The notes: a model not told the origin generated them from the sequence alone. Shown: positions 5,458-55,988, numbered from the stretch's first letter. The stretch: 64,000 nucleotides of DNA from Alphaproteobacteria bacterium (GCA_965229605.1 OZ245892.1:2506944-2570943); one strand, 5' to 3'. A program made the numbers and translations.

Positions 5458-5569
5458 TAAATGACCACTGTTATTTTTGATCTTTTAGGCCATTCAGGCG
5501 GTCGAGACAAGACAGCCGTTTTGCGCTGTGTTGCTTGCACCTGCCTGCACTCCATGGCAGATTAACCGG

Positions 5570-6742
5570 ATGAACGCAGAAAAGACGCAGGTTTTGATTA
5601 TCGGTGGCGGGCCGTCGGGTCTGCTGTTAAGTGCGCTTTTGGCAAAATCGGGCATTGAGTCGATTGTGCTGGAGCAGCGCACGCGCGATTATGTGCTGTC
5701 GCGCATTCGCGCCGGTATTCTGGAGCAGGGATTTGTCGGCTTATTGCGTGAAGTCGGGCTTGCTGACCGGATGCAGCGCGAAGGATTTCGCCATAAAGGC
5801 ATCGCTATTTCTTATGCGGATCGTTTCTTCTCGATTGATTTTGAAAAGCTGATCGGGTCGCATGTGATAGTCTATGGCCAGACCGAGGTCACGCGTGATC
5901 TCTATGCGGCCCACGAAGAGCGGGAAACCGGAATCTATTTCAATGTCACGGAGGTTGAAATTCACGCGATTGACGCATCGCCGTCTGTGACCTTCAGGCA
6001 GGGCGAGAAATCGCATGAAATTCAGGCTGACTTTATCGCCGGATGTGACGGGTTTCACGGGGTTTCCCGCCAGCATATTCCAAAAGCTGTCCAGAATATT
6101 TTTGAAAAGACCTATCCTTTTGGCTGGCTTGGCATCCTCAGCGAGACCCCGCCTGTCCATGAAGAACTGATCTATGCCTGCTCACCGCAAGGATTTGCCC
6201 TTTGTTCCATGCGCAATCAAAATCTGTCGCGCTATTATATTCAGGTCGAACAGTCAGACCGGGTTGAAAACTGGTCTGATCACGCCTTTTGGGATGCATT
6301 ACAAACACGGCTGCCGCCGATGATCGCTGACAAACTGATCACCGGTCCTTCTATTGAAAAGTCGATTGCGCCTTTGCGGTCTTTTGTCTGTGCGCCAATG
6401 TCTTATGGTCGTTTGTTTCTGTGCGGGGATGCGGCCCATATCGTCCCGCCAACCGGAGCCAAGGGTCTGAATACCGCCGGATCAGATGTCTATTATCTCT
6501 GGCACGCCTTGATGGACTATTATCGAGGCGATGAAGAGGCTCTGATAGATTATTCGGACAAGGCTCTGAGCCGGGTCTGGAAAGCCGCGCGTTTTAGCTG
6601 GTGGATGACTCATCTTTTACATCGATTCCCGAATCAATCGGCCTTTGATGACCAGATACAACAGGCCGAGCTGGCCTATTTGCAATCCAGCCCGGCAGCG
6701 CAAGCGGCCTTGGCAGAAAATTATGTGGGGCTTCCTTATTAG
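5570..6742 (+). CDS. pobA: 4-hydroxybenzoate 3-monooxygenase
   Basis: IIGGGPSGL, SRIRAGILEQG, YGQTEVTRDL, GCDGFHGVSR, GDAAHIVPPTGAKGLN, ENYVGLPY. Confidence 0.95.
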   Translation: MNAEKTQVLIIGGGPSGLLLSALLAKSGIESIVLEQRTRDYVLSRIRAGILEQGFVGLLREVGLADRMQREGFRHKGIAISYADRFFSIDFEKLIGSHVIVYGQTEVTRDLYAAHEERETGIYFNVTEVEIHAIDASPSVTFRQGEKSHEIQADFIAGCDGFHGVSRQHIPKAVQNIFEKTYPFGWLGILSETPPVHEELIYACSPQGFALCSMRNQNLSRYYIQVEQSDRVENWSDHAFWDALQTRLPPMIADKLITGPSIEKSIAPLRSFVCAPMSYGRLFLCGDAAHIVPPTGAKGLNTAGSDVYYLWHALMDYYRGDEEALIDYSDKALSRVWKAARFSWWMTHLLHRFPNQSAFDDQIQQAELAYLQSSPAAQAALAENYVGLPY

Positions 6743-10614: not shown

Positions 10615-10689
10615 GCTGCCGTAGCTCAGGGGTAGAGCACTCCCTTGGTAAGGGAGAGGCCGGGAGTTCGATCCTCCCCGGCAGCACCA
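10615..10689 (+). tRNA. tRNA-Thr (anticodon GGT)
   Basis: Acceptor stem GCTGCCG/CGGCAGC plus ACCA; D arm TAGCTCAGGGGTAGAGC; anticodon arm CTCCC-TTGGTAA-GGGAG; T loop GTTCGATC. Confidence 0.97.
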
Positions 10690-10728
10690 GTCACATGCTT
10701 GAATATAGGCGTGTAGACAAAACTCTTT

Positions 10729-10765
10729 CCTTGCATTTTTAACATTTCATGTTAAATTTGCAAGG
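10729..10765. promoter_or_regulatory. 37-bp inverted repeat (operator-like) overlapping a putative leaderless promoter
   Basis: CCTTGCATTTTTAACAT-TTC-ATGTTAAATTTGCAAGG, arms match 15/17, ends immediately before ATG 10766. Confidence 0.65.
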
Positions 10766-11959
10766 ATGTATAAAAGAGAATGCACAGAAAGAATCATCAA
10801 CCGCCTTGGTCAAAATCCGACCGTGGCGATCCTTGGGCCCCGTCAGATTGGCAAGACAACGCTTGCCCATGAAGTTGCTGAAATAACGTCGCGAAATGGG
10901 CAGCCCTCGATTTATCTGGACCTTGAGAACCCGGAAGATTTCCAAAAGCTGCAAGACCCGGCCCCTTATCTGGCGCAACATGCTGACAAGCTGATCATTC
11001 TTGACGAGGTTCAACGCTATCCTGATCTGTTTAACGCCTTGCGCGGGATTATCGATCAACGACGGCGGGAGGGGCGCGGAAATGGGCGCTTTCTGATTTT
11101 AGGATCAGCAACAAACGACTTGCTTAAGCAAAGCTCTGAAAGCCTCGCGGGCCGTATTCATTACACCGAACTTGCAGGTTTAAACCCTTTTGAAATTGAA
11201 AGCCCGGGCGGAGAACCCCTGCAACGGCTCTGGATGCGTGGTGGTTTTCCTGACAGCTATGCTGCCGCAGATGATCGGGCCAGCTATGATTGGCGGCAAA
11301 ATTTTATCAGAACTTATCTGGAGCGTGATATTCCGCAGCTGGGGCCACGCATTCCTGCGACAACCCTTATGCGTTTCTGGACCATGCTTGCTCATACGCA
11401 GGGAGAGTTGCTGAATGCGTCCAAACTTGCGAGTGCCCTTGGTGTAGAGAGTGTTACAATCAGCCGCTATATAGACCTTATGTCTGATCTTTTGCTGGTG
11501 CGCAGGCTGGAGCCCTGGCATGGGAATGTCAAGAAGCGGCTGGTGAAGTCACCCCGGGTTTATGTGCGTGATAGCGGCCTTGTCCATTCACTATTGAGAA
11601 TCAACGATTATGAAGAGTTATCGGGACATCCCATACGCGGCAAAAGCTGGGAGGGATTTGTCATTGAGACTATTCTTAATGCCTTGCCTGCGGGTGTTTA
11701 TGCCAGTTTCTACCGGACGGCAGCGGGGGCAGAGATTGATCTGGTGATCAGCTTCGGGCTGGATGAACATTGGGCGATTGAGATCAAGGCCAGCCACACA
11801 CCGGCCCTTGAAAAAGGCTTTCACATGGCCTGTGCGGATATCAAGGCCAAGCAGAAATTTGTGATTTACACGGGCGAGGACAAATTCCCCGCCCGTCACA
11901 ACACAGAGATTCTATCGCTGGCACATTTTATTGAAAGATTAAAGGAATCAGGAAGTTAA
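10766..11959 (+). CDS. AAA+ ATPase (AAA_14) with DUF4143 / C-terminal PD-(D/E)xK-like domain
   Basis: GPRQIGKTT, IILDEVQ, LILGSA, ESLAGRI, RGGFP, YLERDI, KSPRVYVRDSG, EIDLV..AIEIK. Confidence 0.9.
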   Translation: MYKRECTERIINRLGQNPTVAILGPRQIGKTTLAHEVAEITSRNGQPSIYLDLENPEDFQKLQDPAPYLAQHADKLIILDEVQRYPDLFNALRGIIDQRRREGRGNGRFLILGSATNDLLKQSSESLAGRIHYTELAGLNPFEIESPGGEPLQRLWMRGGFPDSYAAADDRASYDWRQNFIRTYLERDIPQLGPRIPATTLMRFWTMLAHTQGELLNASKLASALGVESVTISRYIDLMSDLLLVRRLEPWHGNVKKRLVKSPRVYVRDSGLVHSLLRINDYEELSGHPIRGKSWEGFVIETILNALPAGVYASFYRTAAGAEIDLVISFGLDEHWAIEIKASHTPALEKGFHMACADIKAKQKFVIYTGEDKFPARHNTEILSLAHFIERLKESGS

Positions 11960-12941: not shown

Positions 12942-13835
12942 ATGAAGGATCGGCTTTCGACCTTGCAGCTTTTTTGCCGGGTTGCGCGGACGGGCAGTTT
13001 TACGGCTGCCGGGAAGGAGATGGGGAAGTCGCAACCTTCGGTTTCCAGGATTATTTCTGCGCTTGAGACCGAGCTTGGCGTAGCCCTGTTTGTGCGCAGC
13101 ACCCATGCGATGAGCCTGACCGAGGCTGGAGAGGGTTACCTTGAGCGAATAGAGCCGCTTTTGTCTGCCATTCAAGAGGCCAATGACAGAGTGCGCGGCG
13201 ATGGCACCTTAAAGGGGAAGCTGCGGATCAGCTGTCCGGCCAGCTTTGCCATACGGGAGGTCATCCCCCGCTTGCCCCCGTTTTTAGAAGAGAACCCGGC
13301 GTTGAATATCGATTTTGTCTTGTCCGATGCAAGGCAAAATCTGATTGACCATGGCATTGATATCGCCATTCGCTTTGGGGAGCTTGAAGATTCGACGATG
13401 GTTGCGCGTAAAATTGTGAGCGGGAGACGGCTGCTTGTGGCTTCCCCGGCCTATTTGAAAAAAGCCGGGACACCAGGCAGCCCGGCCGAGCTTGCGGCGC
13501 ATAATATTGTGCGCGGGCCATCAGGCAAAGGCCCTCTGGGCTGGAAGTTTCAAAAAGGCGACACGCAATTATCTGTGCAAGTGGATGGTCAGGTGAGTGT
13601 TGATGTCAATGAAGCCTCTACGGTGGCGGCCCTGGCGGGGCTCGGCATTATCACCACGGCGACATTTGGCTGCAGGAAAGAGCTTGAAAGCGGCGAGCTG
13701 GTTCAAATTCTACCCGACTGGGAGATCGGCACGATTGAGGGTCATGCTATTCTGGCGGGTGGCAAAAAAGCCAAATCCTCCGCCCGCACCTTTGTGGATT
13801 ACTTGGCTCAGTCATTTGCCGTCAACCGCCAATGA
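12942..13835 (+). CDS. LysR-family transcriptional regulator (CrgA-like)
   Basis: GSFTAAG..SQPSVSRIISALETELGVALFVRST; DIAIRFG; divergent from the redoxin gene. Confidence 0.92.
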   Translation: MKDRLSTLQLFCRVARTGSFTAAGKEMGKSQPSVSRIISALETELGVALFVRSTHAMSLTEAGEGYLERIEPLLSAIQEANDRVRGDGTLKGKLRISCPASFAIREVIPRLPPFLEENPALNIDFVLSDARQNLIDHGIDIAIRFGELEDSTMVARKIVSGRRLLVASPAYLKKAGTPGSPAELAAHNIVRGPSGKGPLGWKFQKGDTQLSVQVDGQVSVDVNEASTVAALAGLGIITTATFGCRKELESGELVQILPDWEIGTIEGHAILAGGKKAKSSARTFVDYLAQSFAVNRQ

Positions 13836-15297
13836 GCCCAGCCAAAATATCCCAGAACGATAGAAGCAGAGCAAGAATAATCCCCGCAAGCAGAAGAACG
13901 CCAATAACTGGAAAAGCAACATTGGCGATTGATTGTCGGGCCAAATAACCCGCAATTTCATTTTTCTCTTTCACTGCTAACGGGTAGTCAGTCGCAGTGT
14001 AGCTTACAAAGCGGCTTATTTTTGATCGGTCCGGCTGGGTGATGGTTAATAAAAACCCGCCAAAGGCCAGCCCATGAAGCAGGCTCGGCAGAAAGGTTGA
14101 AAAAATCATCATAAAAACCCAGCCATCAGGACTAAGGAGTGTTTGCCAAACTGGCCGTGAGTCTATCCGCTGCCAAAGCGCACCAAGATCATAGGCCGGT
14201 TGCTCCAGAGCACTTAAACCCGCTGCCAAACTCATGCCTTTTATTACTAAGAACAAACTGAAAATTAAAACAAGAAGGGTTATAAGAGCGGCAACAAAAT
14301 CAAGCAAATAATAACCTGCTTTTTTTATATGCGTAGGTGCCCTTAATGATTTTTTAAGCAGAAGCCGGGTCACACCAAGCGAGAGCCAATCCAAAATACT
14401 GTTGATAATCGGCAGCACAACAAGAAACAATAAAATACCAAAACTGAGTTCATTGACCGGAAGCCAAGGCTGCGCCAGGAACACGCCAATACATACGACC
14501 AGAAAGGAAAAATAGAGAATGTAAAATAATAAGCGATTGCCTTTTTTTAAAAAATAACTATACGTTATTAGAATCGCGAAAGCGAAAGCGAAAGCGAGAG
14601 CGAGAGCGACAGCGCCAGCGCCAGCGAAAGCGACAGCACCAGCGACAGCGACAGCGCCAGCGCCAGCGACAGCGACAGCGCCAGCGCCAGCGACAGCGCC
14701 AGCGCCAGCGACAGCGCCAGCGACAGCGCCAGCGCCAGCGACAGCGCCAGCGACAGCGCCAGCGACAGCGACAGCGACAGTGAAAGCGAGCCAGATCAAG
14801 CCTTTGACTCCATCTTCTTTATAAAACTTATAGAAACTATAAGTCATTCCAACGATCAAAATAGGAATGAGAGGGGCTTTCCAAAAACGCCCTTCTTCAA
14901 TCGGCGGGAAGAGGCCAAAACCGCTGATATCCTGGTTGCTTCCCAACCAAAAAAGCAGACCCAATATAATGGGATAGAAGAAAGCCCATGTAAGACATAA
15001 TTCGTAACTTTTTATAGAAAATGCACGGGAGCCAAAGAAACGACTTAGGGCCCCGAGTGACCACCTTAATCGTGCCGCATAGCGAATTCGGCGCTTTCGA
15101 CTGCTTAAACGTTTAAATTTAAGATGATGATTTTGAAGACTTTTGTCGTCTTTTAATTCTTTTAAAAATTTAGCTTCCTGATGGACATAGATGTTCCATA
15201 AAGCCCACCCCACAGCAGCAAGGCCGGCTGCCAAAGAAGCCAATATTGGCCAGATATCGACTATCACATCAAGCATGGCTGGTTCTGCTGGGTCCAT
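13822..15297 (-). CDS. Hypothetical multi-pass membrane protein containing an (X-Ala)n low-complexity tract
   Basis: Long ORF with many hydrophobic segments; start uncertain (15297 or 15276). Confidence 0.7.
   Translation of the reverse strand: MDPAEPAMLDVIVDIWPILASLAAGLAAVGWALWNIYVHQEAKFLKELKDDKSLQNHHLKFKRLSSRKRRIRYAARLRWSLGALSRFFGSRAFSIKSYELCLTWAFFYPIILGLLFWLGSNQDISGFGLFPPIEEGRFWKAPLIPILIVGMTYSFYKFYKEDGVKGLIWLAFTVAVAVAGAVAGAVAGAGAVAGAVAGAGAVAGAGAVAVAGAGAVAVAGAVAFAGAGAVALALAFAFAFAILITYSYFLKKGNRLLFYILYFSFLVVCIGVFLAQPWLPVNELSFGILLFLVVLPIINSILDWLSLGVTRLLLKKSLRAPTHIKKAGYYLLDFVAALITLLVLIFSLFLVIKGMSLAAGLSALEQPAYDLGALWQRIDSRPVWQTLLSPDGWVFMMIFSTFLPSLLHGLAFGGFLLTITQPDRSKISRFVSYTATDYPLAVKEKNEIAGYLARQSIANVAFPVIGVLLLAGIILALLLSFWDILAGLIGG
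14575..14790. repeat. Degenerate 6-bp tandem array (AGCGNN)x36, in frame in the membrane-protein gene
   Basis: Units agcgac/agcgcc/agcgaa/agcgag read directly; encode VA/GA/FA/LA dipeptides on the minus strand. Confidence 0.97.
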
Positions 15298-15458
15298 TGG
15301 AGGGAATCTCTTATCAGGTTTTGAAATATTTAAGGGAACACTATTATTTGAACAAAACAGTATATTGAACAGGCAGAATACAGACACAAAAATTCCCTTC
15401 TGACAAGATTTCCCTAATTTGATTGATTTTTCAATGGAAGGGCAATAAGCTGCCGATG

Positions 15459-15505
15459 TAATCAGGAAAAACTGATTATGGAGTTTGGTAGCTCCGAAAC
15501 ATGAG
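15459..15505 (+). promoter_or_regulatory. c4-a1b1/seqA-like leader: two hairpins carrying antisense target sites
   Basis: TAATCAG-gaaaaa-CTGATTA, then GGAG-tttggtag-CTCC, then AACATGAG; both targets are complementary to single-stranded parts of the downstream RNA. Confidence 0.6.
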
Positions 15506-15550
15506 CGGCTTTTGAATCTAGCCGTTACAGACGATTCGTTTTCTCGATCA

Positions 15551-15640
15551 GGGTCGAGGAGGCGACGTTATACAATAGGCGTGCGCGCTAAAAGCGTTGC
15601 GGCTGTCCTCATGTTCAGTCTCTACCAACTCCTCGATCAC
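15551..15640 (+). ncRNA. Putative C4/CI-like cloverleaf antisense RNA
   Basis: Closing stem GGTCGAGGAG/CTCCTCGATC; inner stems GCGACG/CGTTGC and GGCTG/CAGTC; exposed CTCATGTT and CTACCAA are antisense to 15498-15505 and 15485-15491. Confidence 0.6.
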
Positions 15641-15775
15641 CAAGGGTCCCTTGGTGATCTGTTGTGAAGACCATCAAGAGGATGCGAGAGATGCAAAAGC
15701 CGGATATCACGTTTTTATTGCCTGCTTTATTAACAATAAACTTCTGAACGGGGCGGCTATCGATGTGATTGCGCC

Positions 15776-16186
15776 ATGTCCCTGTTTCGCCCTGTATGGA
15801 GCCGTCTTTTATGGGCGTTGCTACTGATTATCCTGTTTGCCCTGCCAGCCCCGGCTAAGGATAAGCATACCGAAGCCGATTACAATAAAATCTATTGTGA
15901 CTTGATTGGCGGTCAAACAGAGGTCAGACATGCCTATACCACCGATGCGGGTGAAACCGGCTATATCATCGTCGATTGCGAAACCGCTACAGAGGTGATC
16001 GAGGGCGGGCTAGACAAACGCTCCAGCCTTGATTCCATCCAGCAAGCCCTGTTCTTTGGCTATTTAACCGGAAAAAAGCCGGTTGTTGTCATCTATGACA
16101 CCGATGGCATCGAAGGCAAAATAGAATACCGCCTCAAAATCACCACAAAACTTACCGGGATTGCCTTTACAATATTTCCCGATTAA
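15776..16186 (+). CDS. Hypothetical exported protein, possible PD-(D/E)xK-like fold
   Basis: Signal peptide LLLIILFALPAPA; E..EV..VDC..VIE..QALFF..TGKKPVVVI pattern. Confidence 0.65.
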   Translation: MSLFRPVWSRLLWALLLIILFALPAPAKDKHTEADYNKIYCDLIGGQTEVRHAYTTDAGETGYIIVDCETATEVIEGGLDKRSSLDSIQQALFFGYLTGKKPVVVIYDTDGIEGKIEYRLKITTKLTGIAFTIFPD

Positions 16187-43969: not shown

Positions 43970-44210
43970 CCGTTCTAAAAATTTAAAATGGGACTGTCCT
44001 AGATAACTAGCCCATATTCTTTCTAACCTATTGCTTTAGCTGTGATAATTTATTTTTGGGTCAAGGTTGTTAAAACGTCATTCACATTCCTTCAAATATA
44101 GCCCAAAATGAGCCTTGGGAACACCTGTTTGAACTTATTCAAAGCGTCGTCAATTCGGTTATACATTCGTCCTGATCCGGTGCATCTGGCACTTTGAGCG
44201 TGGAGACTGG

Positions 44211-44582
44211 TCACCCATGCCGGGTTTTAAGGATATATCGGCTACCAAGAAAGTTGATGGGTGCTAAAGCGATACTGACCAGAATAATCGCAAAGGCATC
44301 ATTGATACGCATTACATTTGTACTGACTTCGATAATCAAGACACCGGCACAGTAGGAGCATGCATAGAACAGAAAATACCCAAGATAATCCCGCTTTGAT
44401 GCCTTGTCTTTGTTAAAGGTATAAATCGAATTCATATACCAGGAAAATGAAGTAACAATAACAAAAGCTACAAAATAAGCTAAATGGGCGTGAGCAAACT
44501 GCAGCATAAACCAGTAAACCAGCCATCCTGCCAGTGTGTTAAATACGCCGATGATCAAGAATTTCAAGAATTGTTTGCGCAT
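44211..44582 (-). CDS. GtrA-family flippase-like protein
   Basis: QFLKFLIIGVFNT, NSIYTF; 4 TM; 123 aa. Confidence 0.88.
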   Translation of the reverse strand: MRKQFLKFLIIGVFNTLAGWLVYWFMLQFAHAHLAYFVAFVIVTSFSWYMNSIYTFNKDKASKRDYLGYFLFYACSYCAGVLIIEVSTNVMRINDAFAIILVSIALAPINFLGSRYILKTRHG

Positions 44583-44627
44583 GGATATTGCGATTTCTTA
44601 TTGGGAAGCAAGTACGTTGGAAGATGG

Positions 44628-46502
44628 TTATGCTTGCCATGGAGGGGTGTGCGCGCCCATGGGGCAGGCCCCGGCTTGTAACGATAACCAGGCCCATATC
44701 AAAAGCCGATGGTCTTGCTCTGCGTTTTGATGGGCAGTTATCATCTGTTCAAGCGACTCCTTGTGTATTCCCCATTGATCGCTACCCTCAACAGACAAGT
44801 CGTGTTGCTTCAGCCAATATAGCAGGGGAATCCCAAAGCCTTTTTTTGGGCGCTTCAAAATTGAATCCGGCACAATGCCATTGGCAGCTACTTTCAAGAT
44901 TTTCTTGCGATTTTTACCATCAAATTTATATGGTGCTGGCAGTTTTCTGGCAAAATCTACCAATTCATTGTCTAAAAAAACCGACCGCGCTTCCAGGCTA
45001 TTCATCATGGATGCTCGATCCGTTTTGACCAAAACATCATCAGGCAAATAGAAATTGGTGAAATATTCCAGGGTTTTGTCGACAGGGGACTTTTCCGGAT
45101 CTTCCCGCCACAGAGCGAGAACCTCACTAAAGACCTCTTCAACCTGCACATCTTGCTGGAAAAGGTCCTGCAAATCACCCATCGAGGCGGGCCCCATCCA
45201 TGATGGCAGCCATAATTCAGGAGGATGATCCAAACCCTTCATAGTACGGCGTAATTTGAAATCCAGCGACATGTTTCTGCTGGAATAGGGGAGCAGGTCA
45301 ACCAGCTTTTTAATGCCGCAGTGCATGCGCTTTGGCACCACAGATTGATAAATACGTGCAGGAAGCAGGGCTGCAAATGGGTCATAACCGCCAAAAATTT
45401 CATCTCCACCATCACCGCTTAAACAGACGGTGACATATTTGCGGGCAAAACCGCAAAGAAAATACGTTGGCAGGATTGAACTGTCACAAATCGGCTCATC
45501 TATGCGGGGCAAGACTTCTTTCATAAGCTGTCTGGCTTTGTCATAGTTCAAAATCTGGTTCTTGTGGCGTGACCCGATTACATCTGCAACGGTTTGGGCA
45601 TAGGGGCTCTCATCGTAGCTTTTTTCATGAAAACCGATAGAAAAACTTTGAATCGGGTCTGATTGGCAGGTGCTGGCGATACAAGCTACAAGGCTTGAGT
45701 CAATCCCGCCCGATAAAAAGATGCCTAAGGGGACATCACTCATCATTCGGCGCTTGAGTGACTGATGCAAAATTCTCTTCAGTTCTTCTGCTGCCTCCTC
45801 AAAGGATGGAGGTTGCAGATCTGCCTCAATACGAAAAGACCAGTAGCTTTCAATGTCAATAGACTGACAATCAATTTGGTACGTCAGGCTGCTGCCTGGC
45901 TTCAATTTCCAGCAATCAGCATAAAGGCTATTGGGGGCAGGAATATAGCCGTGGGCGAATAGCTTATATAAGGACAGCATATTGGGGTTTGAGTCAAAGT
46001 GCTGATGGTAACGGAAGGCAGATAATTCAGAGGCAAAATAGAAATTGCCTTTCTGGAATCCCCAAAATAAAGGTTTTTCACCAAATCGGTCTCGTGCTAG
46101 AAAAAGCTGCCTTGTTCGTTGGTCAAAGAGGGCGAAAGCAAACATACCATTCAGTTTGCCTGGCAGATCCTGCTGCCATTCCTTCCAGCCATGGACAAGA
46201 ATTTCTGTATCTGAATGGTCTGTACGAAAGACATGACCAAGGCTTTCCAACTCCCGCCGCAATTCACGATGATTGTAAATCTCGCCATTATAGACAACGG
46301 TAATGAGCTGCGAGGCATCCTGCATTGGTTGTAAGCCATCCGCCAAATCAATGACTGCCAGTCGTTGATGTGCCAGGAAAACCGGATGGTTCGGGATCTT
46401 ATGCACACCATGTCCATCGGGACCACGATGCGCCAGACATAGTCCCATATTCCGCGCATCCTCCAGATCGCCACGACCTGCAAAACCGGCGATTCCACAC
46501 AT
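44628..46502 (-). CDS. asnB: Asparagine synthase-type amidotransferase (probably glycan amidation)
   Basis: MCGIAG, HRGPD, NGEIYN, RDRFGEKPL, LSGGIDSS, SGDGGDE, KTDRASMMNSLEAR. Confidence 0.92.
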   Translation of the reverse strand: MCGIAGFAGRGDLEDARNMGLCLAHRGPDGHGVHKIPNHPVFLAHQRLAVIDLADGLQPMQDASQLITVVYNGEIYNHRELRRELESLGHVFRTDHSDTEILVHGWKEWQQDLPGKLNGMFAFALFDQRTRQLFLARDRFGEKPLFWGFQKGNFYFASELSAFRYHQHFDSNPNMLSLYKLFAHGYIPAPNSLYADCWKLKPGSSLTYQIDCQSIDIESYWSFRIEADLQPPSFEEAAEELKRILHQSLKRRMMSDVPLGIFLSGGIDSSLVACIASTCQSDPIQSFSIGFHEKSYDESPYAQTVADVIGSRHKNQILNYDKARQLMKEVLPRIDEPICDSSILPTYFLCGFARKYVTVCLSGDGGDEIFGGYDPFAALLPARIYQSVVPKRMHCGIKKLVDLLPYSSRNMSLDFKLRRTMKGLDHPPELWLPSWMGPASMGDLQDLFQQDVQVEEVFSEVLALWREDPEKSPVDKTLEYFTNFYLPDDVLVKTDRASMMNSLEARSVFLDNELVDFARKLPAPYKFDGKNRKKILKVAANGIVPDSILKRPKKGFGIPLLYWLKQHDLSVEGSDQWGIHKESLEQMITAHQNAEQDHRLLIWAWLSLQAGACPMGAHTPPWQA

Positions 46503-46507
46503 GTGGC

Positions 46508-47464
46508 CTAGCTCTTGACCTTGTTGTAGACAGAACGAATTTTATAGATGTCCTGATTTTGACTTTCGTAATAGGTCCTGATCAGAAGCTCGGCCAGCAA
46601 CCCCATTAACAGACAGGTTATGCCTGTTGACAGAAAGGTGCCCGTGATGACTGGTAATGGCGTCGCACTAAAGGGAATATCGTTAAATAATTTTAAGTAG
46701 ACGGCCCATAACCCGCAACCAAAAGCTCCAGCCAATAATGTCATACCAACACCCCCAAACACATAGATAGGCTTGGTAAGGTATCGGTCCATAAAGGACA
46801 AAATCAACAAATCCAGCAGCACTTTAAAGATGCGATTCAAACCATATTTGGATTTTCCATGAATGCGTGGGCGGTGATTGACGGGTACTTCAGAAATTTT
46901 TCCACCGTACCATTTGGTATAAATCGGCACAAAGCGATGCATTTCTCCGTAAAGCTTAACATGTTCGAGTGAATCGCGGCGATAGGCCTTTAACGAGCAA
47001 CCATAATCATGCAAATGCACCCCCGACACCCTGGAGATAATTGCGTTGGCAACCCGACTTGGAATTTTTCGGGATAATGTTTTATCTTTCCGGTCTTTAC
47101 GCCAACCGGAAACGACATCAAAGCCCTTGTCCAGTTCTTCTAGCAATTTAGGTATTTCTGCAGGGTCGTTTTGCCCGTCACCATCAAGTGCGATAATGAT
47201 TTCACCCTTTGCTGCATCAAATCCGGCCATCATTGCGGCAGTTTGCCCATAGTTCCGACGAAGGTCAATGACGGTCATGGCATCATTTTTGGATGCCTCT
47301 TCATGCAAAACGGATAATGTTGAGTCGGTTGATCCATCATTGATGCAAATCAGTTCCCAAGGCTGCCCAATATCTTGCATGCTTGTTGTGATTTCTACGA
47401 TCAGCGAGCTAATATTACTCTCTTCATTGTAAAATGGGACAATAACGGATAAAGAAATCAACAT
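46508..47464 (-). CDS. GT2 polyprenol-phosphate glycosyltransferase (GtrB/ArnC-like)
   Basis: LSVIVPFYNEE, NDGSTD, RNYGQTAA, DGDGQNDP, two C-terminal TM. Confidence 0.92.
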   Translation of the reverse strand: MLISLSVIVPFYNEESNISSLIVEITTSMQDIGQPWELICINDGSTDSTLSVLHEEASKNDAMTVIDLRRNYGQTAAMMAGFDAAKGEIIIALDGDGQNDPAEIPKLLEELDKGFDVVSGWRKDRKDKTLSRKIPSRVANAIISRVSGVHLHDYGCSLKAYRRDSLEHVKLYGEMHRFVPIYTKWYGGKISEVPVNHRPRIHGKSKYGLNRIFKVLLDLLILSFMDRYLTKPIYVFGGVGMTLLAGAFGCGLWAVYLKLFNDIPFSATPLPVITGTFLSTGITCLLMGLLAELLIRTYYESQNQDIYKIRSVYNKVKS

Positions 47465-47563
47465 ATTTTGTCCTCGCATGAAAGAAATAAACAAATAGTT
47501 TTTATGGCTACTCATACTTCGGAATCAAAGGAAATGCAATTAAAGTTACGTTGGAACAAATTG

Positions 47564-49069
47564 ATGAATTATGCTATTTTTTGTCCAGACGGCTTGTCAA
47601 AGACGCCGAGCAGGCTGGCTTTATTGATTGGCTTGGTTATAGCGGCCAGTATCGGTATCGCCGGCTTATATTCTAGCCAAAAAGCAGTTTATTTGACAAA
47701 AAACCCAGATATTTGTGGTGTATATTGCGACATGGCACTGCATTATGGAACATATTTCGCAGACAAAAGTTTTGATAAATATTATTTTAGTAAATCAGCG
47801 GGATCTCTTTTTGTTTATGTTGGCGTCTCTACAGGTATCATTGACCCGGTCCCGGCTTCGGTGAATCAGGCCCTGGAAATTGTCTCTTTGCTGACAATGC
47901 TGGCAACTACGGCAGCCTGGTTTTCTATTTGTCATCGCATGGCCTTTGGTAATAGTGCCTTTATGCTCGGAATCGTTACCTTTTTTGTGAGCCAGCTATT
48001 TGTGTGGGACATTCCACTGGCCCAGGAAAGCCCGGATGCCATTGCATTATTTCTGGGTATGATGTTTATTTTGGGAATTGTAGCGAAATGCTATTGGTTG
48101 ATATTGGCGGTCTTTTTTTTGGCCTCTTTTTCTCAAACCCAATTGGCCTTATATATCGTGCCGGTCATTTTGTTTTGGAAATTACAATCGAAACCCGCAT
48201 CGGCATTCATTGTCAAGAATCTGGCAGGGTTGTTGAAATATTTTGCCAATAAGAATGTACGAGGAGCTGCATTGATCTTTGTTCTTTTCGTTGTATTGTT
48301 TTCTTTAGTGGCTTATGGATTGGCCCTGTTTCGAGGACCTTATCACGGATATGAGGCAACGATTGAAATATTGTGGCCCCTTAGCATTGTGGCAGCGTCT
48401 GGATTGTTGACTTGGTTGCTTATCAGAATGCGGATTTTTCATGCGGCCTGCAGATATTGCGGCTTTCTGGAGCAAAAAGAATTCTGGCTGCGCTTTTCCT
48501 TGATGGTGATCTTCTTTCTGATCAAGGGCGCATTCATCGAGTGGGTCGCGCAGGGTGAAGTCAAATCGTTGGCCAGCTCGACCGCTGGGGCTGCATATCT
48601 AACAGCTTCCATGCTATATTTGGGTGTTGAGGCTCCCTTAAAAAGCTGGATTGTTCATTTTTTCTATTTAGGGCCAATCATTTATTATTTTGCTAGCAGG
48701 ATTACAGCGGTTGACGATTTCGACCAAAATTACAGCCCCGGTTTCAGTCTGACGATTGCGGCTGTATTGGTGTTTTCGGTTAATTCGGAAAGTCGTCATT
48801 TTGTAGGATTCTTGCCCTGGTTGATGGTCGTGCCTCTTCTTTTAGATAAGGGTAATGTATCCCGGGCGTTTATGGTAGCTTATATTGTTCTGATGTTACT
48901 AAGCAGCCGGTTTTTTGTGGAAATCTGGCCTTCTGAACCAGCACAAGATTCCTGGCTTTTGACATGGGGTCCGTGGTGGACAATGGAACATTATTACATA
49001 TCCATTATTCCAGCAGCAATTGGGATTCTGATACTGGCCTGCGCTGACAAAATGCTGAAAAAAAACTAA
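47564..49069 (+). CDS. Multi-pass membrane protein, possible GT-C glycosyltransferase
   Basis: More than 10 hydrophobic segments; beside GtrA/GtrB-like genes; start uncertain. Confidence 0.6.
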   Translation: MNYAIFCPDGLSKTPSRLALLIGLVIAASIGIAGLYSSQKAVYLTKNPDICGVYCDMALHYGTYFADKSFDKYYFSKSAGSLFVYVGVSTGIIDPVPASVNQALEIVSLLTMLATTAAWFSICHRMAFGNSAFMLGIVTFFVSQLFVWDIPLAQESPDAIALFLGMMFILGIVAKCYWLILAVFFLASFSQTQLALYIVPVILFWKLQSKPASAFIVKNLAGLLKYFANKNVRGAALIFVLFVVLFSLVAYGLALFRGPYHGYEATIEILWPLSIVAASGLLTWLLIRMRIFHAACRYCGFLEQKEFWLRFSLMVIFFLIKGAFIEWVAQGEVKSLASSTAGAAYLTASMLYLGVEAPLKSWIVHFFYLGPIIYYFASRITAVDDFDQNYSPGFSLTIAAVLVFSVNSESRHFVGFLPWLMVVPLLLDKGNVSRAFMVAYIVLMLLSSRFFVEIWPSEPAQDSWLLTWGPWWTMEHYYISIIPAAIGILILACADKMLKKN

Positions 49070-49240
49070 GTGTCTGATTATTTTAAAAGCCGAATTTTCA
49101 GCATACCACACAATAATAATCATATATAGAGGATAAATATACGGTTGAACATGCATTCAGCGTATCTTAAAGACCAGTGATTCGCTGCAGTAAATACCTG
49201 AATTCGTATAGTTATCGCGTTCTATTAGCGGGGCCAGCAT

Positions 49241-50365
49241 ATGATATTTAGATTAGTGAAAGCAGGACTTTTTATCTTTTGCCTTTTTGTGGCCTATGCT
49301 TTTGGTATCATTTCAATGCGATATAATTTCTACCCGGTCGGCGAGCTCTATTTAAAACCGGAAGCCATTAAACAGGTCATTGATGATTATCGATATCAAT
49401 CAGGTTTGAAAGGCGAACATTCAAAGATTCTACGCATTTATGAGGAAGCAACGCATCCAGGCTTAAGGTCGGAAATCGCAGCGAAACTCATCATTCCGGA
49501 TCGAAAATATGTTTCTATGGCCCATGATTGTTCAATTTGTGCGAACAACGTCGCTTTGGAACATCACACGGTAACGACATATGACACGGTTCATAATGCA
49601 CATTACTATTATAACCGCAGAAAAAAATCCACACGCCTGGTTATCTATTTACAAGGGCATGGTGGCAGTCCTTATGAACATGACTACGCGCTAAACATCC
49701 TGTCGCAAGTGACAAAACGTGGTGACAGTATGTTATTAATGTCGATGACGGGATTAGGTCTTAATCAGGGTCCTGCCAGTTTCTCATCAACATTGTTTGG
49801 TAAAGACATAACACGAAAATTGCCAAAAGAACGCGCTGCTCAGCATCAGTTTTATGCTGAATTCCGAGATTCGACCCAACCTGATCTTATCGATATCGCA
49901 ATTATGATTTCCGGCAATTACCATCTTGTTAAAGAAATTTCTGAATCTTATACCGATATTGACATTGTTGGTGTCTCTGGCGGTGGCTGGTATAGTGTAT
50001 TCTTGGCTGCATTGCTGCCAGAAATTGACAATACCTATTCCTACGCAGGCTCTTTACCAATGGTCTACCGCGTAATTAAATCTAACAAAGGAGACTTTGA
50101 GCAATATGATAGCTTATTTTGGCAGGATTATGATTACTACCATTTATATTTCCTGTCGGTGATGGATAAAAATAACGATGCGACGCGGAAGCTGCATCTT
50201 GTTTATCATTCTAAAGATGAATGCTGTATGCGTGACCCCTATGCATCTGAGTTTAAGAACATGATGACAGACTTCATATCAAAGAGGCTTGATGTCACAG
50301 TTCTAAATCAGCGTGCTCATAAAATTAATGAATACCACTTACTTTCCCAACTCTATGTCGAGTAA
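49241..50365 (+). CDS. Membrane-anchored alpha/beta hydrolase-fold protein
   Basis: N-terminal TM; YLQGHGG; nucleophile elbow VGVSGGGW; late Asp and His. Confidence 0.65.
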   Translation: MIFRLVKAGLFIFCLFVAYAFGIISMRYNFYPVGELYLKPEAIKQVIDDYRYQSGLKGEHSKILRIYEEATHPGLRSEIAAKLIIPDRKYVSMAHDCSICANNVALEHHTVTTYDTVHNAHYYYNRRKKSTRLVIYLQGHGGSPYEHDYALNILSQVTKRGDSMLLMSMTGLGLNQGPASFSSTLFGKDITRKLPKERAAQHQFYAEFRDSTQPDLIDIAIMISGNYHLVKEISESYTDIDIVGVSGGGWYSVFLAALLPEIDNTYSYAGSLPMVYRVIKSNKGDFEQYDSLFWQDYDYYHLYFLSVMDKNNDATRKLHLVYHSKDECCMRDPYASEFKNMMTDFISKRLDVTVLNQRAHKINEYHLLSQLYVE

Positions 50366-50416
50366 GGACCAAAGAAGTAAAACAGCATATATGTGCAAAG
50401 AGGTAAGGATATAAGC

Positions 50417-51223
50417 ATGGGCAACAAATCGCGACAATCCGTATATGATGAAGGGTTCTTCAGCTATACAAGCCGTATTTCTGACCGGTCATCTGAAATT
50501 GCTGTTCCAATATTAAGCGGATTGTTGCCCGAAATATCCAGCGTGGTTGATTTTGGGGCTGCAGAATGTGTGTGGATCAGTAAATGGAAGAAAGTCGGCA
50601 TTGAAGATATTATCGGGATTGATGGCAATTATGTCGATCAGCAAAAATTGTGGATTAGCCCTGATAAATTTCACAGTGCCGATTTAAACAAGCCGATTGA
50701 CCTGAAGCGGCGTTTTGACTTTGCCTATAGTCTTGAAGTTGCAGAACATTTAAAACCGGAAGCATCAGCGGTCTTTGTAGAATCACTGGTGCGCCATTCG
50801 GACATCGTTTTGTTTTCGGCTGCCCCGCCAGGGCAGGGGGGCGAAAGCCACATTAATGAAAAGCCGATGGAGTTTTGGCGGGATCTTTTTGTTAAAAATG
50901 GCTATGCTGCCTATGATTGCATACGGCCAAAACTGATAAAGGAAACGGATATTTCCTATTGGTATCGATACAATGCACTTCTTTATATCAAGAAAGGCCG
51001 CGAAGAACTTGTTTCCCGCCATATTCTGGATACACGTTTAGAGGATGATGCAAAAATTCTCGACATATCACCGATGTGGTTCAAAATGCGCAAGGCCGTT
51101 GTCAGAATGCTCCCTGTATCATGGCAAAATGTTCTGGCCCGATTAAAGGCTAGAAAAAAATTCAAAGCGGGTTTGATCCTGACCCTGAAAAATAAAACAG
51201 TTTTCATTCTGGTCCAAGAATAA
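50417..51223 (+). CDS. Class I SAM-dependent methyltransferase
   Basis: SVVDFGA, GIDG, SLEVAEHL, FSAAPPGQGGESHINE. Confidence 0.88.
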   Translation: MGNKSRQSVYDEGFFSYTSRISDRSSEIAVPILSGLLPEISSVVDFGAAECVWISKWKKVGIEDIIGIDGNYVDQQKLWISPDKFHSADLNKPIDLKRRFDFAYSLEVAEHLKPEASAVFVESLVRHSDIVLFSAAPPGQGGESHINEKPMEFWRDLFVKNGYAAYDCIRPKLIKETDISYWYRYNALLYIKKGREELVSRHILDTRLEDDAKILDISPMWFKMRKAVVRMLPVSWQNVLARLKARKKFKAGLILTLKNKTVFILVQE

Positions 51224-52236
51224 TGAACGATGACGATTATATTTTGGTGACAGGTGGAGCCGGTTTTATTGGCTCTCATATTTGCCTGAAACTCCAGGAG
51301 AGTGGATATCGTCCTTTGGTGTTTGATAATTTTAGCAATGGTCATCGCGATGCAGTGGTGGGCTTTGATATCATCGAGGGAGATATACGTGACTCAACTG
51401 CGCTTTCCAGCTTGTTCCAGAAATATAATATCGCTGCGGTCATTCATATGGCTGGTTTGATCGAAGCAGGTGTTTCTGTACATGATCCTGCGCCGTTCTA
51501 TGATGTTAACACGCTTGGCAGTTTCCGCTTGCTGGAGGCGATGCGGCAGTTTGACCGGAGGCATCTTGTTTTTTCGTCAACGGCAGCTCTTTATGGCAAT
51601 AACGAAACACCTTTATTGCACGAAGAACTATCGGTCGCACCAGTGAATCCCTATGGAACGTCAAAAGCTGTTGTTGAAATGATGCTTCGCGATTTTGTGG
51701 GGATCTATGGTTTCAGCGCAACAGCCTTACGCTATTTTAACGCAACCGGGGCAGATCCAGCCGGGCGGGCTGGAGAACGCCATAATCCAGAGAGTCATTT
51801 GATTCCAATTGCACTTCAAGCTGCAGCAGGACTGCGGTCTGGTATGAAGCTGTATGGAACTGATTACGATACCCTAGATGGAACTTGTATACGTGACTAT
51901 GTTCATGTTGATGATCTGGCTGATGCGCATGTAAAGGCAGTTACCAGATTATTGGGAATGAGGTCCCCGGCGTTTGATGTAATGAATATTGGTACCGGGA
52001 ATGGTTGTTCGGTTCGTGATATCTTGGATTTATGCCGTAAAATTACAGGCGTTGATTTTAAGATTGAGGAAACTGCTCGCCGGGCCGGTGACCCCTCGTC
52101 TCTGGTCGCTGACGCAGCTAAAGCGCAAAGACTATTGGGGTGGAAAGCCAAATACCCGGAACCAGAAGATATGATCCGCCACGCTTGGCAATTTATAAAG
52201 CAAGGGAACAAACCTATTCAACACGGAAAGAACTGA
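51223..52236 (+). CDS. galE: UDP-glucose 4-epimerase
   Basis: VTGGAGFIGSH, FSSTAA, PYGTSK, LRYFN, DGTCIRDYVHV. Confidence 0.93.
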   Translation: MNDDDYILVTGGAGFIGSHICLKLQESGYRPLVFDNFSNGHRDAVVGFDIIEGDIRDSTALSSLFQKYNIAAVIHMAGLIEAGVSVHDPAPFYDVNTLGSFRLLEAMRQFDRRHLVFSSTAALYGNNETPLLHEELSVAPVNPYGTSKAVVEMMLRDFVGIYGFSATALRYFNATGADPAGRAGERHNPESHLIPIALQAAAGLRSGMKLYGTDYDTLDGTCIRDYVHVDDLADAHVKAVTRLLGMRSPAFDVMNIGTGNGCSVRDILDLCRKITGVDFKIEETARRAGDPSSLVADAAKAQRLLGWKAKYPEPEDMIRHAWQFIKQGNKPIQHGKN

Positions 52237-53093
52237 CGTCTTGTTTTTGAATATTTCGCAGAGGCTGAAAATCTAAACAGACTTGCTGCCAACTTGTTGA
52301 AAACGGAAACAGGAAGAATCTGATAAATCAATTCCCATCCGGCATAAAGCCATAAAGGCCTTGTGGATGCTTTGTTTCTCCACTGCTTCCATAAGTTGAC
52401 CAGCCGTTTGGCTTGATAGAGGTCCGTGTGTTTATTACGAATAAAAGACCAAAGCTCGGCGTGACGGCTGCGTGAGGTGCTTGCCAGCATTCCTGTTTTT
52501 TGTACGCGATAATGAAAGAGAGGAGCCGGAATGACCGCTCCATGATATCCTGCTTTGCCCAGACGAATATTCCAATCCCAGTCTTCGTACCCTTTGCGCA
52601 TTGTTTCGTCATAACCGCCCAGTTCTTCCCAGCAGCTCTTTGGTTGCAAAAGACAGTATGGCAGTTGATTCAAAAAAAGCTGCTCAAAGAAATTATAATT
52701 CTTTTGCATTATACCATCAGATTCTGCTTCCAGCTTAAGCCATGCGAAAGCAAAATGAATGTCTGGGCGGCTGTTAATCAATTCCAACCCTTTTTCTATG
52801 AAGTTTGGTTCGAGCCAGTCATCACAGTCTAAAGGCAGGACATAATCCCCGCGTGCTTTTTGGAAGCCAGTATTTCTTGCACCAGGCAGGCCTTTGTTTT
52901 CCTGCCTGATCAGCGTAATATCGTCAGTCATACTCTCTAAATAGCTAATGGTGTCAAAATCAGTGGAGCCATCATCTATGACCAGTATTTCGCACGGTTT
53001 GCAGGTTTGCTGGCGAACAGACTCCAAGGCCTGATCCAGAAATTTATGTCCGTTGTAGCAAGGAATGATAACGGAAACGCGAATATCTATCAT
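52218..53093 (-). CDS. Glycosyltransferase family 2
   Basis: VSVIIPCYN, DDGSTD, GARNTG, LDCDD, EDWD. Confidence 0.92.
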   Translation of the reverse strand: MIDIRVSVIIPCYNGHKFLDQALESVRQQTCKPCEILVIDDGSTDFDTISYLESMTDDITLIRQENKGLPGARNTGFQKARGDYVLPLDCDDWLEPNFIEKGLELINSRPDIHFAFAWLKLEAESDGIMQKNYNFFEQLFLNQLPYCLLQPKSCWEELGGYDETMRKGYEDWDWNIRLGKAGYHGAVIPAPLFHYRVQKTGMLASTSRSRHAELWSFIRNKHTDLYQAKRLVNLWKQWRNKASTRPLWLYAGWELIYQILPVSVFNKLAASLFRFSASAKYSKTRRQFFPC

Positions 53094-53866
53094 TTTATCA
53101 CTTTTTTCCTGTTATTAATATAGCAAACAGCCCATATTTCGCTCCAAACAGTACGCAGGCTTTCAATGCTCAGGCCTGCGCTTGTGATTTCATCTTCAAA
53201 TTCTTTAATTGTATGTTCAATAAAGTGCGTGCGGTCGTTAAAATAAGTTATCCCCAGTTCCTTACGCATAGGAACATGCCATTCGCGCTCGAAAGCGGGA
53301 ACACGAATCATTATGGTTTTTGGATTTAGCTTGCTCTGCAGGCGACGCAAAAAGGCCTGACGCTCTTCAATATGCTCAAGGACATTTGAAAGGATAACAA
53401 TATCAGCAGAACCTTCAGGCAGGACTTCAAACGCGTCCCCAAAAAGAAAAGAGAGATTTTCTGGATTATCAGAGGCTATAGCTTGATGGTACCGCCCTTC
53501 GTCCATTTCAACACCCACGACAGTTGTATGGCTAACTCTGTTGGCAATCGACCGAGCGACGGCACCATATCCACATCCAATATCGATAACTTTTTGGCCC
53601 GGTTTGATATAGTCAACAAAAAAATCATGATATTTCATCAAGCGATGCTTTGGATGCTCACCTCCCTCATAAGCCATAGCGCGTTCTGAAAGTAAGCGGT
53701 CCATATTATCACGCATTGGGTATAACCGTCGCAAAGCATCAGCAGGTGTGCCAATTCGCGATTCCAGCATGAGCAAGCCAAATATCAATTTCTCCCGCAA
53801 CCTCGCTGGTATCAGGCGGTAAAACAATGATAAAAAAGCAATAAGAGATAATAAAAATTTCCTCAT
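53090..53866 (-). CDS. Class I SAM-dependent methyltransferase
   Basis: VIDIGCGYG, LSNVLEHI. Confidence 0.88.
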   Translation of the reverse strand: MRKFLLSLIAFLSLFYRLIPARLREKLIFGLLMLESRIGTPADALRRLYPMRDNMDRLLSERAMAYEGGEHPKHRLMKYHDFFVDYIKPGQKVIDIGCGYGAVARSIANRVSHTTVVGVEMDEGRYHQAIASDNPENLSFLFGDAFEVLPEGSADIVILSNVLEHIEERQAFLRRLQSKLNPKTIMIRVPAFEREWHVPMRKELGITYFNDRTHFIEHTIKEFEDEITSAGLSIESLRTVWSEIWAVCYINNRKKVIK

Positions 53867-53871
53867 CGTGA

Positions 53872-54951: not shown

Positions 54952-55988
54952 TAGCGCATTAATCCATGCTTTAATCTAAACCACAAACGATCCATGCGTG
55001 GATGCCGCGCCGCAATGACTGAACGTCGATTCTGATTCAGCTGTGTAAACAAATCCAACCAGTCAGTACAGGTCTTGCGCAGGTTATGTGGATAAGAGGA
55101 TATTTTCGTTTGCCAAAAATCATAATTGCCCAATAATTCTTCTAGCTGCTGCTCAAAACTTGGAATATTATGAAATGCCAGCCCATAGCCGCCAAGATAT
55201 TCGGGCATGCAGCCACTGGCGAGATACAGAACAGGCAAGCCGCATTGCGCCCCTTCATTCTGATGATTGCCGCCTGGTTCATTTATCGAACCGGTTACAT
55301 AAGCATGCTGTTTGCGCAATGCATCTGCCAGAAACTGACCAGATAAGGGGGAAATATGGTGTGCATGCCTGAATTGATACCCTTTAGGCAAATTGCCAAT
55401 ATATGTAAAATCTATACGATTCGCCCAGGAAGGTTCAAACAGCATTTTATCCAGATGATCATAGATATCAAAGCCTTTCATCCAGTTGCCGGCCCAGTGA
55501 TGAGTGACCAGTTTCAATTTGCCTTGATGATCCCAGGGGTTGAAACCATGGCTGTTATAAACAGCCAGATCTGCGCCGTTCAGAATGACGCTTGATGACA
55601 TTTGATCTGTGCCAAGCCATACGTCCAGATCTTTCAACCAGCTGCCAACAAAAACAGTGTGATCAGCCGCTTCATTACAGAGCTTCAGCATCCGGTTCAT
55701 ATTTTTGGTGTTTTTACGCTCGTCACATTCGTTAATCCGGTGGACGATTATACAATCAGGATTACGCCGCTGAACATAGCGCCAAGCTGCATTATAACTG
55801 AAAGGAATGGATTTGTTGCGGCGCCCGAACCGCGGGTCGGAGAGAAGAATAAAATCAATATCAGAGTCCTCCAACCCTTGAACAACACGATGCCCGGCTT
55901 TCTCTAAAGCGTGGATAAGACCAGAGAAAAAACTGTTGCCGCCCCCCCATGGTCCTGGTTGAACGTTATAAGCAATGCATATTTTCAT
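54951..55988 (-). CDS. Glycosyltransferase (GT-B, GT4-like)
   Basis: GPWGGGN, ILNGAD, KGFD, EPGGNHQNEGAQCGLP (Ex7E). Confidence 0.8.
   Translation of the reverse strand: MKICIAYNVQPGPWGGGNSFFSGLIHALEKAGHRVVQGLEDSDIDFILLSDPRFGRRNKSIPFSYNAAWRYVQRRNPDCIIVHRINECDERKNTKNMNRMLKLCNEAADHTVFVGSWLKDLDVWLGTDQMSSSVILNGADLAVYNSHGFNPWDHQGKLKLVTHHWAGNWMKGFDIYDHLDKMLFEPSWANRIDFTYIGNLPKGYQFRHAHHISPLSGQFLADALRKQHAYVTGSINEPGGNHQNEGAQCGLPVLYLASGCMPEYLGGYGLAFHNIPSFEQQLEELLGNYDFWQTKISSYPHNLRKTCTDWLDLFTQLNQNRRSVIAARHPRMDRLWFRLKHGLMR

Follow-up and report, generated by a model that had tools for sequence, protein, structure and literature searches.

The window analysed here is a stretch of 64,000 nucleotides (nt) from an Alphaproteobacteria bacterium (GCA_965229605.1 OZ245892.1:2506944-2570943), read on one strand and numbered from its first letter. 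Around 15459-15775, on the plus strand, lies a module in which a candidate promoter is followed by a leader, an RNA with the form of a three-way junction (15552-15638), a hairpin (15635-15659), an open reading frame (ORF) of 18 codons and a gene for an exported protein of 136 amino acids, referred to below as the cargo gene. The RNA element is confirmed to be real, and the hairpins, leader sites, palindrome and ORFs marked in an earlier account drawn from the DNA alone (the sequence-only reading) are all present where that account had placed them. The central observation is that two unpaired segments of the RNA are exact complements of two sites in the leader upstream of it, with CTCATGTT in the loop of hairpin P3 matching AACATGAG over 8 nt and CTACCAA in the joiner matching TTGGTAG over 7 nt, both of which that reading had claimed.

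The RNA body with its tail occupies 15552-15642 (plus strand, as are all elements of the module) and is built from three stems, P1, P2 and P3. The closing stem P1 joins 15552-15561 (GGTCGAGGAG) to 15629-15638 (CTCCTCGATC) by ten pairs, one of which is G-U, and is followed by an ACCA tail at 15639-15642. The long arm P2 (15562-15568/15594-15600) contains the internal loop AUACAAUA at 15570-15577 and a distal hairpin at 15578-15589. Hairpin P3 (15601-15605/15616-15620) has its loop at 15606-15615, with the recognition segment at 15608-15615, and the joiner (15621-15628) places CTACCAA (15622-15628) immediately ahead of the P1 3' strand. The RNA had been described as a cloverleaf; the closing stem is upheld, and the four-arm shape gives way to a P1-P2-P3 three-way junction. 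A terminator-like hairpin at 15635-15666 follows, consisting of the palindrome GATCACCAAGGG-T-CCCTTGGTGATC (15635-15659) with arms of 12 base pairs and a weak T tract, TGTTGTG, at 15660-15666; clear T runs follow the hairpin in relatives such as genome G001. The base of the palindrome overlaps P1 by 4 nt (15635-15638), as had been noticed, and the competition suggested between the two helices is confined to the lowest four pairs of P1. In the minimum-energy fold of 15551-15662 (-44.4 kcal/mol, z = -3.74, a value equalled by none of 200 shuffles) the palindrome and the six-pair remainder of P1 are both present.

The leader opens with hairpin H1 at 15459-15478 (TAATCAG at 15459-15465, CTGATTA at 15472-15478), which is unchanged across all six copies of alignment A2. 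Hairpin H2 (15480-15495) has the form GGAG-TTTGGTAG-CTCC, and its loop exposes TTGGTAG (15485-15491), the target of the joiner and the counterpart of a1 in the naming used for phage P1. The target of the P3 loop, AACATGAG, is single-stranded at 15498-15505 and is the counterpart of b1. It adjoins hairpin H3 (15506-15524; CGGCT/AGCCG), which shows a compensatory change to CGGTT/AACCG in the paralogue c2579k, and an anti-P1 strand at 15541-15548 forms a local hairpin with 15553-15560 in the 5' strand of the closing stem. Upstream of the leader a candidate sigma-70 promoter was read by eye at 15423-15451 (TTGATT at 15423-15428, a spacer of 17 nt and TAAGCT at 15446-15451), and we infer this assignment from motifs, TTGATT and TAnnnT, that are common to all six aligned copies. 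Downstream of the RNA, a Shine-Dalgarno sequence (AAGAGGA, 15676-15682) precedes the 18-codon ORF (15691-15747; 15676-15747 in all). An invariant ATGGAG at the junction of H1 and H2 (window 15478-15504) starts an eight-codon mini-ORF with its stop inside the loop-target site in four of the six copies and a longer one in the other two; it is probably incidental.

BLAST and model searches found the whole module, RNA together with exported-protein gene, five times in the 2.73-Mb single-contig genome, with leaders starting at 275794, 2094547, 2522402 (the window copy), 2579505 and 2638736 (the last on the minus strand). These are five separate chromosomal positions that do not share flanks, and the sequence common to the modules is limited to the stretch between roughly the -35 box and a point some 10 nt beyond the cargo stop codon. 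Among seven candidate copies found by a 12-nt motif, those at 2320800 and 2482012 were due to chance.

Both complementarities between leader and RNA are kept in all five paralogues with sequences that are all distinct, and the H2-loop site covaries with the joiner in each of them. The joiner target and joiner are TAAGACA and TGTCTTA in c275k, CTAATAAA and TTTATTAG in c2094k, TTGGTAG and CTACCAA in the window copy, TTAAGAA and TTCTTAA in c2579k, and TGGTAAG and CTTACCA in c2638k. The corresponding P3-loop target and P3 loop are AGACATAG and CTATGTCT in c275k, CATAGATA and TATCTATG in c2094k, AACATGAG and CTCATGTT in the window copy, CACATAAG and CTTATGTG in c2579k, and TGTGGATG and CATCTGCA, with two G-U pairs, in c2638k. 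In a five-by-five matrix of duplex energies the cognate pair is the most stable in every row, by a small margin for c2579k (-16.3 versus -14.1 kcal/mol), and an exact two-site target for each RNA was found in the whole 2.73-Mb genome in its own leader only. The existence of distinct specificities is established by these comparisons. Among the five copies, 0.54 of positions differ in the recognition segments, compared with 0.18 in internal stems and 0.27 at other unpaired positions, and this fastest divergence fits selection for distinct specificities.

A covariance model, R1, was built from the five copies and the copy in the relative G001 (127 positions, 31 pairs). Over these six homologues 97.8% of cells are paired and five pairs have changed on both sides, which bears out the covariation expected from the sequence-only reading; the palindrome helix (helix 5 of the alignment) is 100% paired. 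When 151 genomes from across the class were searched, the model matched in 26, in many of them more than once, and E-values outside the home family were as low as 7e-18. Thirty-three matches were aligned, from which L042 (22 bits) and L043 (20.5 bits) were excluded as P3 could not be aligned, leaving 31 loci; the matches L004 and L020 were spurious. The leader has the same order throughout the family: a G-rich hairpin with the joiner target in its loop, the adjoining loop target, a CGG...CCG hairpin and the anti-P1 strand, with GGGG-loop-CCYC as the recurring form of H2. Compensatory changes are seen in P1, P2 and H3. An anti-P1 hairpin of -8 kcal/mol or below forms at 28 of the 31 loci compared with 183 of 620 shuffles, and the anti-P1 strand covaries with P1 (for example CCCTGGAA/TTCCGGGG in L037). 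NCCA stands directly 3' of P1 at 25 of the 31 loci. The layout, the family and the covariation are in this way established.

Pairing with the own leader was scored as a perfect two-site match summing to at least 12 nt, with the joiner target 5' of the loop target and within 12 nt of it. By this measure 27 of the 31 loci match their own leader, compared with 8 of 930 cross-locus pairs; the four exceptions are the G001 copy, c2638k (which pairs via G-U), L026 and L044. A pattern scan of genome contigs gave 48 stretches in which L090 and L112 alone were genuine, and a scan of viral contigs gave four genuine members among the 80 loci listed of 87 stretches. All four members on predicted viral contigs pair with their own leader. 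These data bear directly on one alternative, that the complementarity arose by chance in a structured intergenic repeat that has no RNA function. Although no Rfam family is reached at threshold, as that explanation would have it, the excess of own-leader over cross-locus matches, the compensatory changes in three helices and the number and strength of matches outside the family all speak against it, and it is already contradicted by the covariation; we give it next to no weight.

Two relatives deserve description beside this survey. In a Parvibaculaceae metagenome-assembled genome (MAG), locus L112 has tandem RNA copies at 5559-5688 and 5811-5933. No leader can be recognised for the first, which also lacks an own-leader match. 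The second is accompanied by the same cargo gene and has a full leader, with which it pairs through a sixth specificity (CTGATAG / ACGAAAG). In G001, three further matches to the Rfam family sRNA-Xcc1 lie below threshold, one of them at 609299; the sub-threshold locus L054 shows own-leader pairing and no match to the leader sites of that genome's R1-type copy, and the sub-threshold locus L076 has no own-leader pairing.

C4-type RNAs are textbook phage immunity devices, and the sequence-only reading had likened the layout to that of the phage P1 C4 RNA. This likeness is borne out by the annotated P1 record, in which the order is promoter, a1 (TTGACAG), b1, hairpin, anti-P1 strand, c4, a2 and b2 within 40 nt, and icd, and which annotates c4 as a repressor RNA with a1/b1 upstream. 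The c4 sequence has b' in the P3 loop and a' in the joiner, and model R1 aligns it in register at 11.5 bits. The window RNA thus has the same order and junction geometry as c4: the P3 loop and the joiner ahead of the P1 3' strand hold the recognition sites, a1/b1-type sites lie upstream in the same transcript, and the RNA begins with GGT and has CCA after the stem. It differs from the P1 and P7 immI regions in having no a2/b2 over the downstream ribosome-binding site and neither icd/ant genes nor a prophage around it, and its P2 is a long arm with a AUACAAUA loop where c4 has a tetraloop hairpin.

In formal terms the window RNA belongs to no Rfam family, and here the expectation of a match to the C4 models was disappointed. 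At their own thresholds the Rfam models found only a transfer RNA (tRNA), at 10615-10686, in the whole window, with no family reached at the element. C4 (RF01695, cut-off 45 bits) gave no match at E <= 10 in 15300-15900 or in the whole genome, nor any in 20 related loci. None of the five leaders was matched by c4-a1b1 (RF03163, cut-off 46.7 bits), the best matches of which in the genome lie elsewhere, at 13.3 bits or less with E of at least 1.4; the leader nevertheless resembles that motif as a structured leader with two upstream target sites of a C4-type RNA. Under permissive settings sRNA-Xcc1 (RF02221) matched 15552-15646 at only 26.0 bits (E 0.031), below its cut-off of 53, and the alignment takes in the full model (1-87 of 87 positions) with its AUACAAUA internal loop. 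The same search found two of the paralogues at 27.1 and 29.9 bits, and related loci score 36.5-43.8 bits, giving a graded series. This is the best Rfam match; the junction, the AUACAAUA motif and the own-leader pairing are common to both, and the window RNA differs from sRNA-Xcc1 in scoring below its cut-off and in having a different cargo.

Across the class, sRNA-Xcc1 itself matched in 24 of the 151 genomes, in five of them above the cut-off. Of 53 matches listed, 26 lay in stored loci and one of these fell outside its locus, leaving 25 for the own-leader comparison; two-site pairing was found in 19 of the 25 (18 of 24 when genome G042 is left out) compared with 63 of 600 cross pairs, and the pairing is therefore also a property of the wider sRNA-Xcc1 group. 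In one genome (G016, L050/L074) three above-threshold sRNA-Xcc1 copies at 749745, 750739 and 751733 are spaced by about 1 kb, resembling a cassette array.

Comparable RNAs have been described elsewhere. In Xanthomonas integron cassettes, sRNA-Xcc1 is reported upstream of symE, a potentially toxic gene (bioRxiv 10.1101/2025.06.18.660453), and seven sRNA-Xcc1 homologues are reported for Xylella (PMC12189769). Acinetobacter baumannii is reported to have 21 chromosomal C4-like RNAs cut from longer transcripts at GGW, of which Group 1 has a conserved 5' 'Region 1' hairpin and a variable recognition loop (PMC5320573). The window RNA resembles Group 1, as described there, in its many chromosomal copies per genome and its variable recognition loop, and differs in that the Group 1 RNAs reach the Rfam C4 motif, a distinction drawn from the published description and not from sequence; no mention of own-leader complementarity was noticed there. 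The c4 and c4-a1b1 motifs are listed by Weinberg 2010 (PMC2864571). Literature on c4-a1b1, on sRNA-Xcc1 and on C4 with symE or toxin-antitoxin systems yielded no report of C4-type RNAs directed at their own leader only, although the Weinberg 2010 supplement may cover the distribution of a1/b1.

We propose, at a probability a little short of even, that the window RNA is a distant chromosomal member of the C4/sRNA-Xcc1 superfamily of tRNA-like antisense RNAs that would act as a copy-specific feedback regulator on its own leader. The layout, the family and the specificities are observed; processing, action in trans and the sign of the effect on the cargo are what we infer.

Targets downstream of the RNA were sought at all 31 loci, and their absence is likewise established. 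Whether the first 150 or the first 400 nt past the RNA are taken, the recognition segments find as much complementarity in foreign loci as in their own, and Watson-Crick matches of at least 7 nt in the first 150 nt occur at none of the 31 own loci compared with 41 of 930 cross pairs. No paired sites of more than 12 nt were found within 700 nt downstream at any locus. The absence of a second target pair noticed by the sequence-only reading therefore extends to those 700 nt at all 31 loci, and its statement that no antirepressor gene follows is upheld for the window copy. A type I toxin-antitoxin arrangement, in which the RNA would be antisense to a toxin messenger RNA, was not seen, as complementarity to the cargo region is at control level. 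The P1 3' strand matches the Shine-Dalgarno region of the cargo by at least 5 nt at 17 of 31 loci compared with 262 of 930 cross pairs, and these matches covary (CACCCC/GGGGTG, CTTCC/GGAA). The P1 3' strand accordingly has three alternative partners, namely the P1 5' strand, the base of the terminator hairpin and the cargo Shine-Dalgarno sequence, the last being modestly above control.

The absence of other targets also bears on the suggestion, made in the sequence-only reading, of a superinfection-immunity RNA, that is, one that would exclude incoming mobile elements or phages with the same leader while the resident leader serves as a decoy. There is precedent for this in C4, family members occur on the four predicted viral contigs, and the paralogues have distinct specificities as is described for P1 and P7 (PMC5320573). 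Against it, blastn gave no match among 50,697 phage and 72,556 plasmid records, and the genome search returned no second exact target pair besides the own leader. The neighbours in the window are a LysR regulator, a membrane protein, a glyoxalase, SodB and a tRNA, no phage genes were seen around the copy, its context is not a prophage and the cargo is an ordinary accessory gene. We consider an immunity role quite improbable, and these searches turned up nothing in its favour.

The other alternatives concern how the leader pairing would be used, and folding models of the precursor are informative here. Nineteen of the 31 loci were modelled, selected for a clear start codon and for two sites of at least 6 nt each. 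The internal recognition pairs form in all 19 precursors, P1 forms in one of 19 with a probability near 0 in the models, and imposing P1 costs a median of 15.6 kcal/mol. The internal pairing with the leader is worth 9.6 kcal/mol on average, which is lost from the closed state when the leader sites are blocked. When they are blocked in silico, Shine-Dalgarno accessibility goes down at eight of the 19 loci and up at three.

The working that we propose is that of a portable cassette with its own promoter, leader, small RNA, leaky terminator and cargo gene. RNase P would probably excise the RNA from the 5' untranslated region at G15552, the cues for such a cut being that the RNA starts with GGT and that ACCA follows the closing stem. 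Before processing, the leader would serve as an interrupted antisense copy of the RNA body, its joiner target, loop target and anti-P1 strand together holding that body in a closed, non-junction fold. In the processed RNA the P3 loop and the joiner would be exposed and would pair with the two leader sites on transcripts of their own locus only. Action in trans by the mature RNA, on new leaders of its own copy, is what we hold most likely. The bound RNA would displace the internal pairing and free the CUCC-rich P1 3' strand, which could then pair with the cargo Shine-Dalgarno sequence, and cargo expression would be held down. In our reading the mature RNA is most likely a repressor of the cargo, and the sequence-only reading's proposal of a domesticated switch regulating host cargo is plausible.

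The same models would also suit a pro-sequence working only in cis, in which the leader pairs with the same molecule and guides or delays its folding and maturation by RNase P, the cargo being expressed by read-through and no feedback taking place in trans. All three leader segments lie on the RNA body in the modelled precursors, the three pairings are co-linear and resemble one long interrupted hairpin, and nothing downstream matches the RNA. However, a helix formed in cis needs no paralogue-specific sequence, whereas the divergence of the recognition helices is three times that of the internal stems. The targets are moreover a hairpin loop and a single strand, as is usual where separate molecules have to pair quickly, and P1 c4 acts in trans, as is established and as its record is annotated. 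We regard this explanation as unlikely, while still deserving attention.

An opposite sign is offered by the IsrK RNA of Salmonella Gifsy-1, which ends at a leaky terminator while a read-through form carries downstream ORFs, and whose short form acts in trans on that read-through form, activating it via the downstream orf45 region (PMC4825925). By analogy, the read-through transcript would be silent until a short RNA opened it in trans at the leader and turned the cargo on. The window RNA is like IsrK, as described there, in being a predicted short RNA that would end at a terminator-like hairpin, with ORFs on the read-through transcript. Predicted accessibility of the cargo ribosome-binding site in the free precursor is low (mean 0.34), and occupation of the leader sites removes the roughly 9.6 kcal/mol of closed-state stability, both as an activator would require. 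Blocking these sites, however, brings Shine-Dalgarno accessibility down at more loci than it brings it up, with P1 unformed, and where IsrK in that description pairs with a downstream ORF region, no such pairing occurs here and the upstream leader is the sole conserved partner. Such an activator seems to us improbable.

Several observations weigh against the copy-specific feedback regulator that we favour. A strict consensus scan of the window copy called neither promoter nor terminator. The mean shift in Shine-Dalgarno accessibility on blocking the leader sites is weak, from 0.34 to 0.28, and P1 is not restored (mean probability 0.04), so that the regulatory sign is not established. Complementarity between the Shine-Dalgarno sequence and P1 is partly generic, because GGAG pairs with CUCC in any case. 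The own-leader match is absent at L026 and L044, and one site in c2638k requires two G-U pairs. The single R1-type copy of G001 (L015/L090) has an intact RNA, scoring 130 bits, without self-complementarity; its leader sites are identical to those of c2579k and its RNA sites differ at 0.39 of positions, and an intact RNA with a mismatched leader implies that the pairing is not indispensable for retention of the locus. Lastly, the fast divergence of the recognition sites could reflect relaxed constraint with compensatory drift.

The RNA had been termed an orphan, a description that no longer applies, as the same exported-protein gene accompanies it in all five paralogues and in two relatives. 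In the window this gene lies at 15776-16186 on the plus strand and encodes a 136-amino-acid protein with a signal peptide. The protein family has 831 matches, without a Pfam family or names. According to its structure model (predicted local distance difference test score 88.8), the protein is predicted to have a restriction-endonuclease-like, PD-(D/E)XK fold, the model being matched by NucS (2vld_B, Z 9.8, root-mean-square deviation 2.3 over 88 residues), VC1899 (1xmx_A, Z 9.1) and Can2 (7bdv_A, Z 8.3), and by the CdiA-CT and TseT toxin domains at Z 6-8; Foldseek alone found nothing at E 0.001 or better. Within the family D67, E69, E76 and D80 never vary and K81 hardly does, these residues being candidates for the canonical catalytic D...(D/E)xK set. 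In cargo homologues of a Binatia MAG and of Roseovarius no such RNA was seen in the 600 nt upstream, as judged by eye only and with the model not run.

Across the whole family, diverse cargo genes start 13-50 nt past the hairpin. They include a PAP2 phosphatase, a DNA methylase, GIY-YIG and PD-(D/E)XK proteins, TM2 and DUF805 membrane proteins, lipoproteins, transferases and a helix-turn-helix protein, and nine of the 20 in a Pfam scan had no match. The 18-codon ORF is retained in three of the five paralogues. The ATG right behind the conserved AAGAGGA serves as the start of the exported-protein gene in G001 and L112. In the three paralogues concerned it opens just this hydrophobic ORF, and the cargo, which lacks a clear Shine-Dalgarno sequence, begins in a different frame a further 29 nt on. 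The ORF may be the remnant of an old signal peptide, or a coupling ORF.

Other features of the window were noted. Divergent to the RNA, on the minus strand at 13822-15387, is a gene for a predicted membrane protein of 521 amino acids with Ala/Gly/Val repeats and no Pfam family, and a second copy of the first 130 nt or so of this region lies upstream of c2638k. The tRNA at 10615 is directly followed by a DUF4143/AAA_14 ATPase gene (window 10615-11959). The G+C content falls from about 0.55 to about 0.43 in the last 20 kb of the window (44000-64000), which may be an island.

The window RNA is a variant of the known C4/sRNA-Xcc1 control device, and it is of interest for its targeting of the own leader only, its five specificities in one genome and its spread below the level of detection by Rfam. 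Of the 151 genomes sampled in the class, 26 have a C4-like architecture whose similarity stays below Rfam thresholds. The module, placed before unrelated accessory genes, has just the upstream sites left, to which the P1 annotation still assigns no more than a 'putative' role. The five specificities of one small genome form a natural test set for the idea of private, non-interfering two-site RNA control channels. If the proposed reading is true, the a1/b1 sites would be explained and a compact, reprogrammable regulatory part would be gained. A broader and more doubtful idea, which we offer as a possibility only, is that leader pairing of the a1/b1 type is the ancestral core of the C4/sRNA-Xcc1 superfamily, a self-addressed RNA 'governor', each copy of which would recognise the leader of its own transcript alone and leave the others undisturbed. 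Were this so, a portable promoter-leader-RNA-terminator cassette would need no complementarity to its cargo, and genomes and phages could carry several potentially harmful cargo genes, such as nucleases, small membrane proteins and methylases, each with a private feedback loop.

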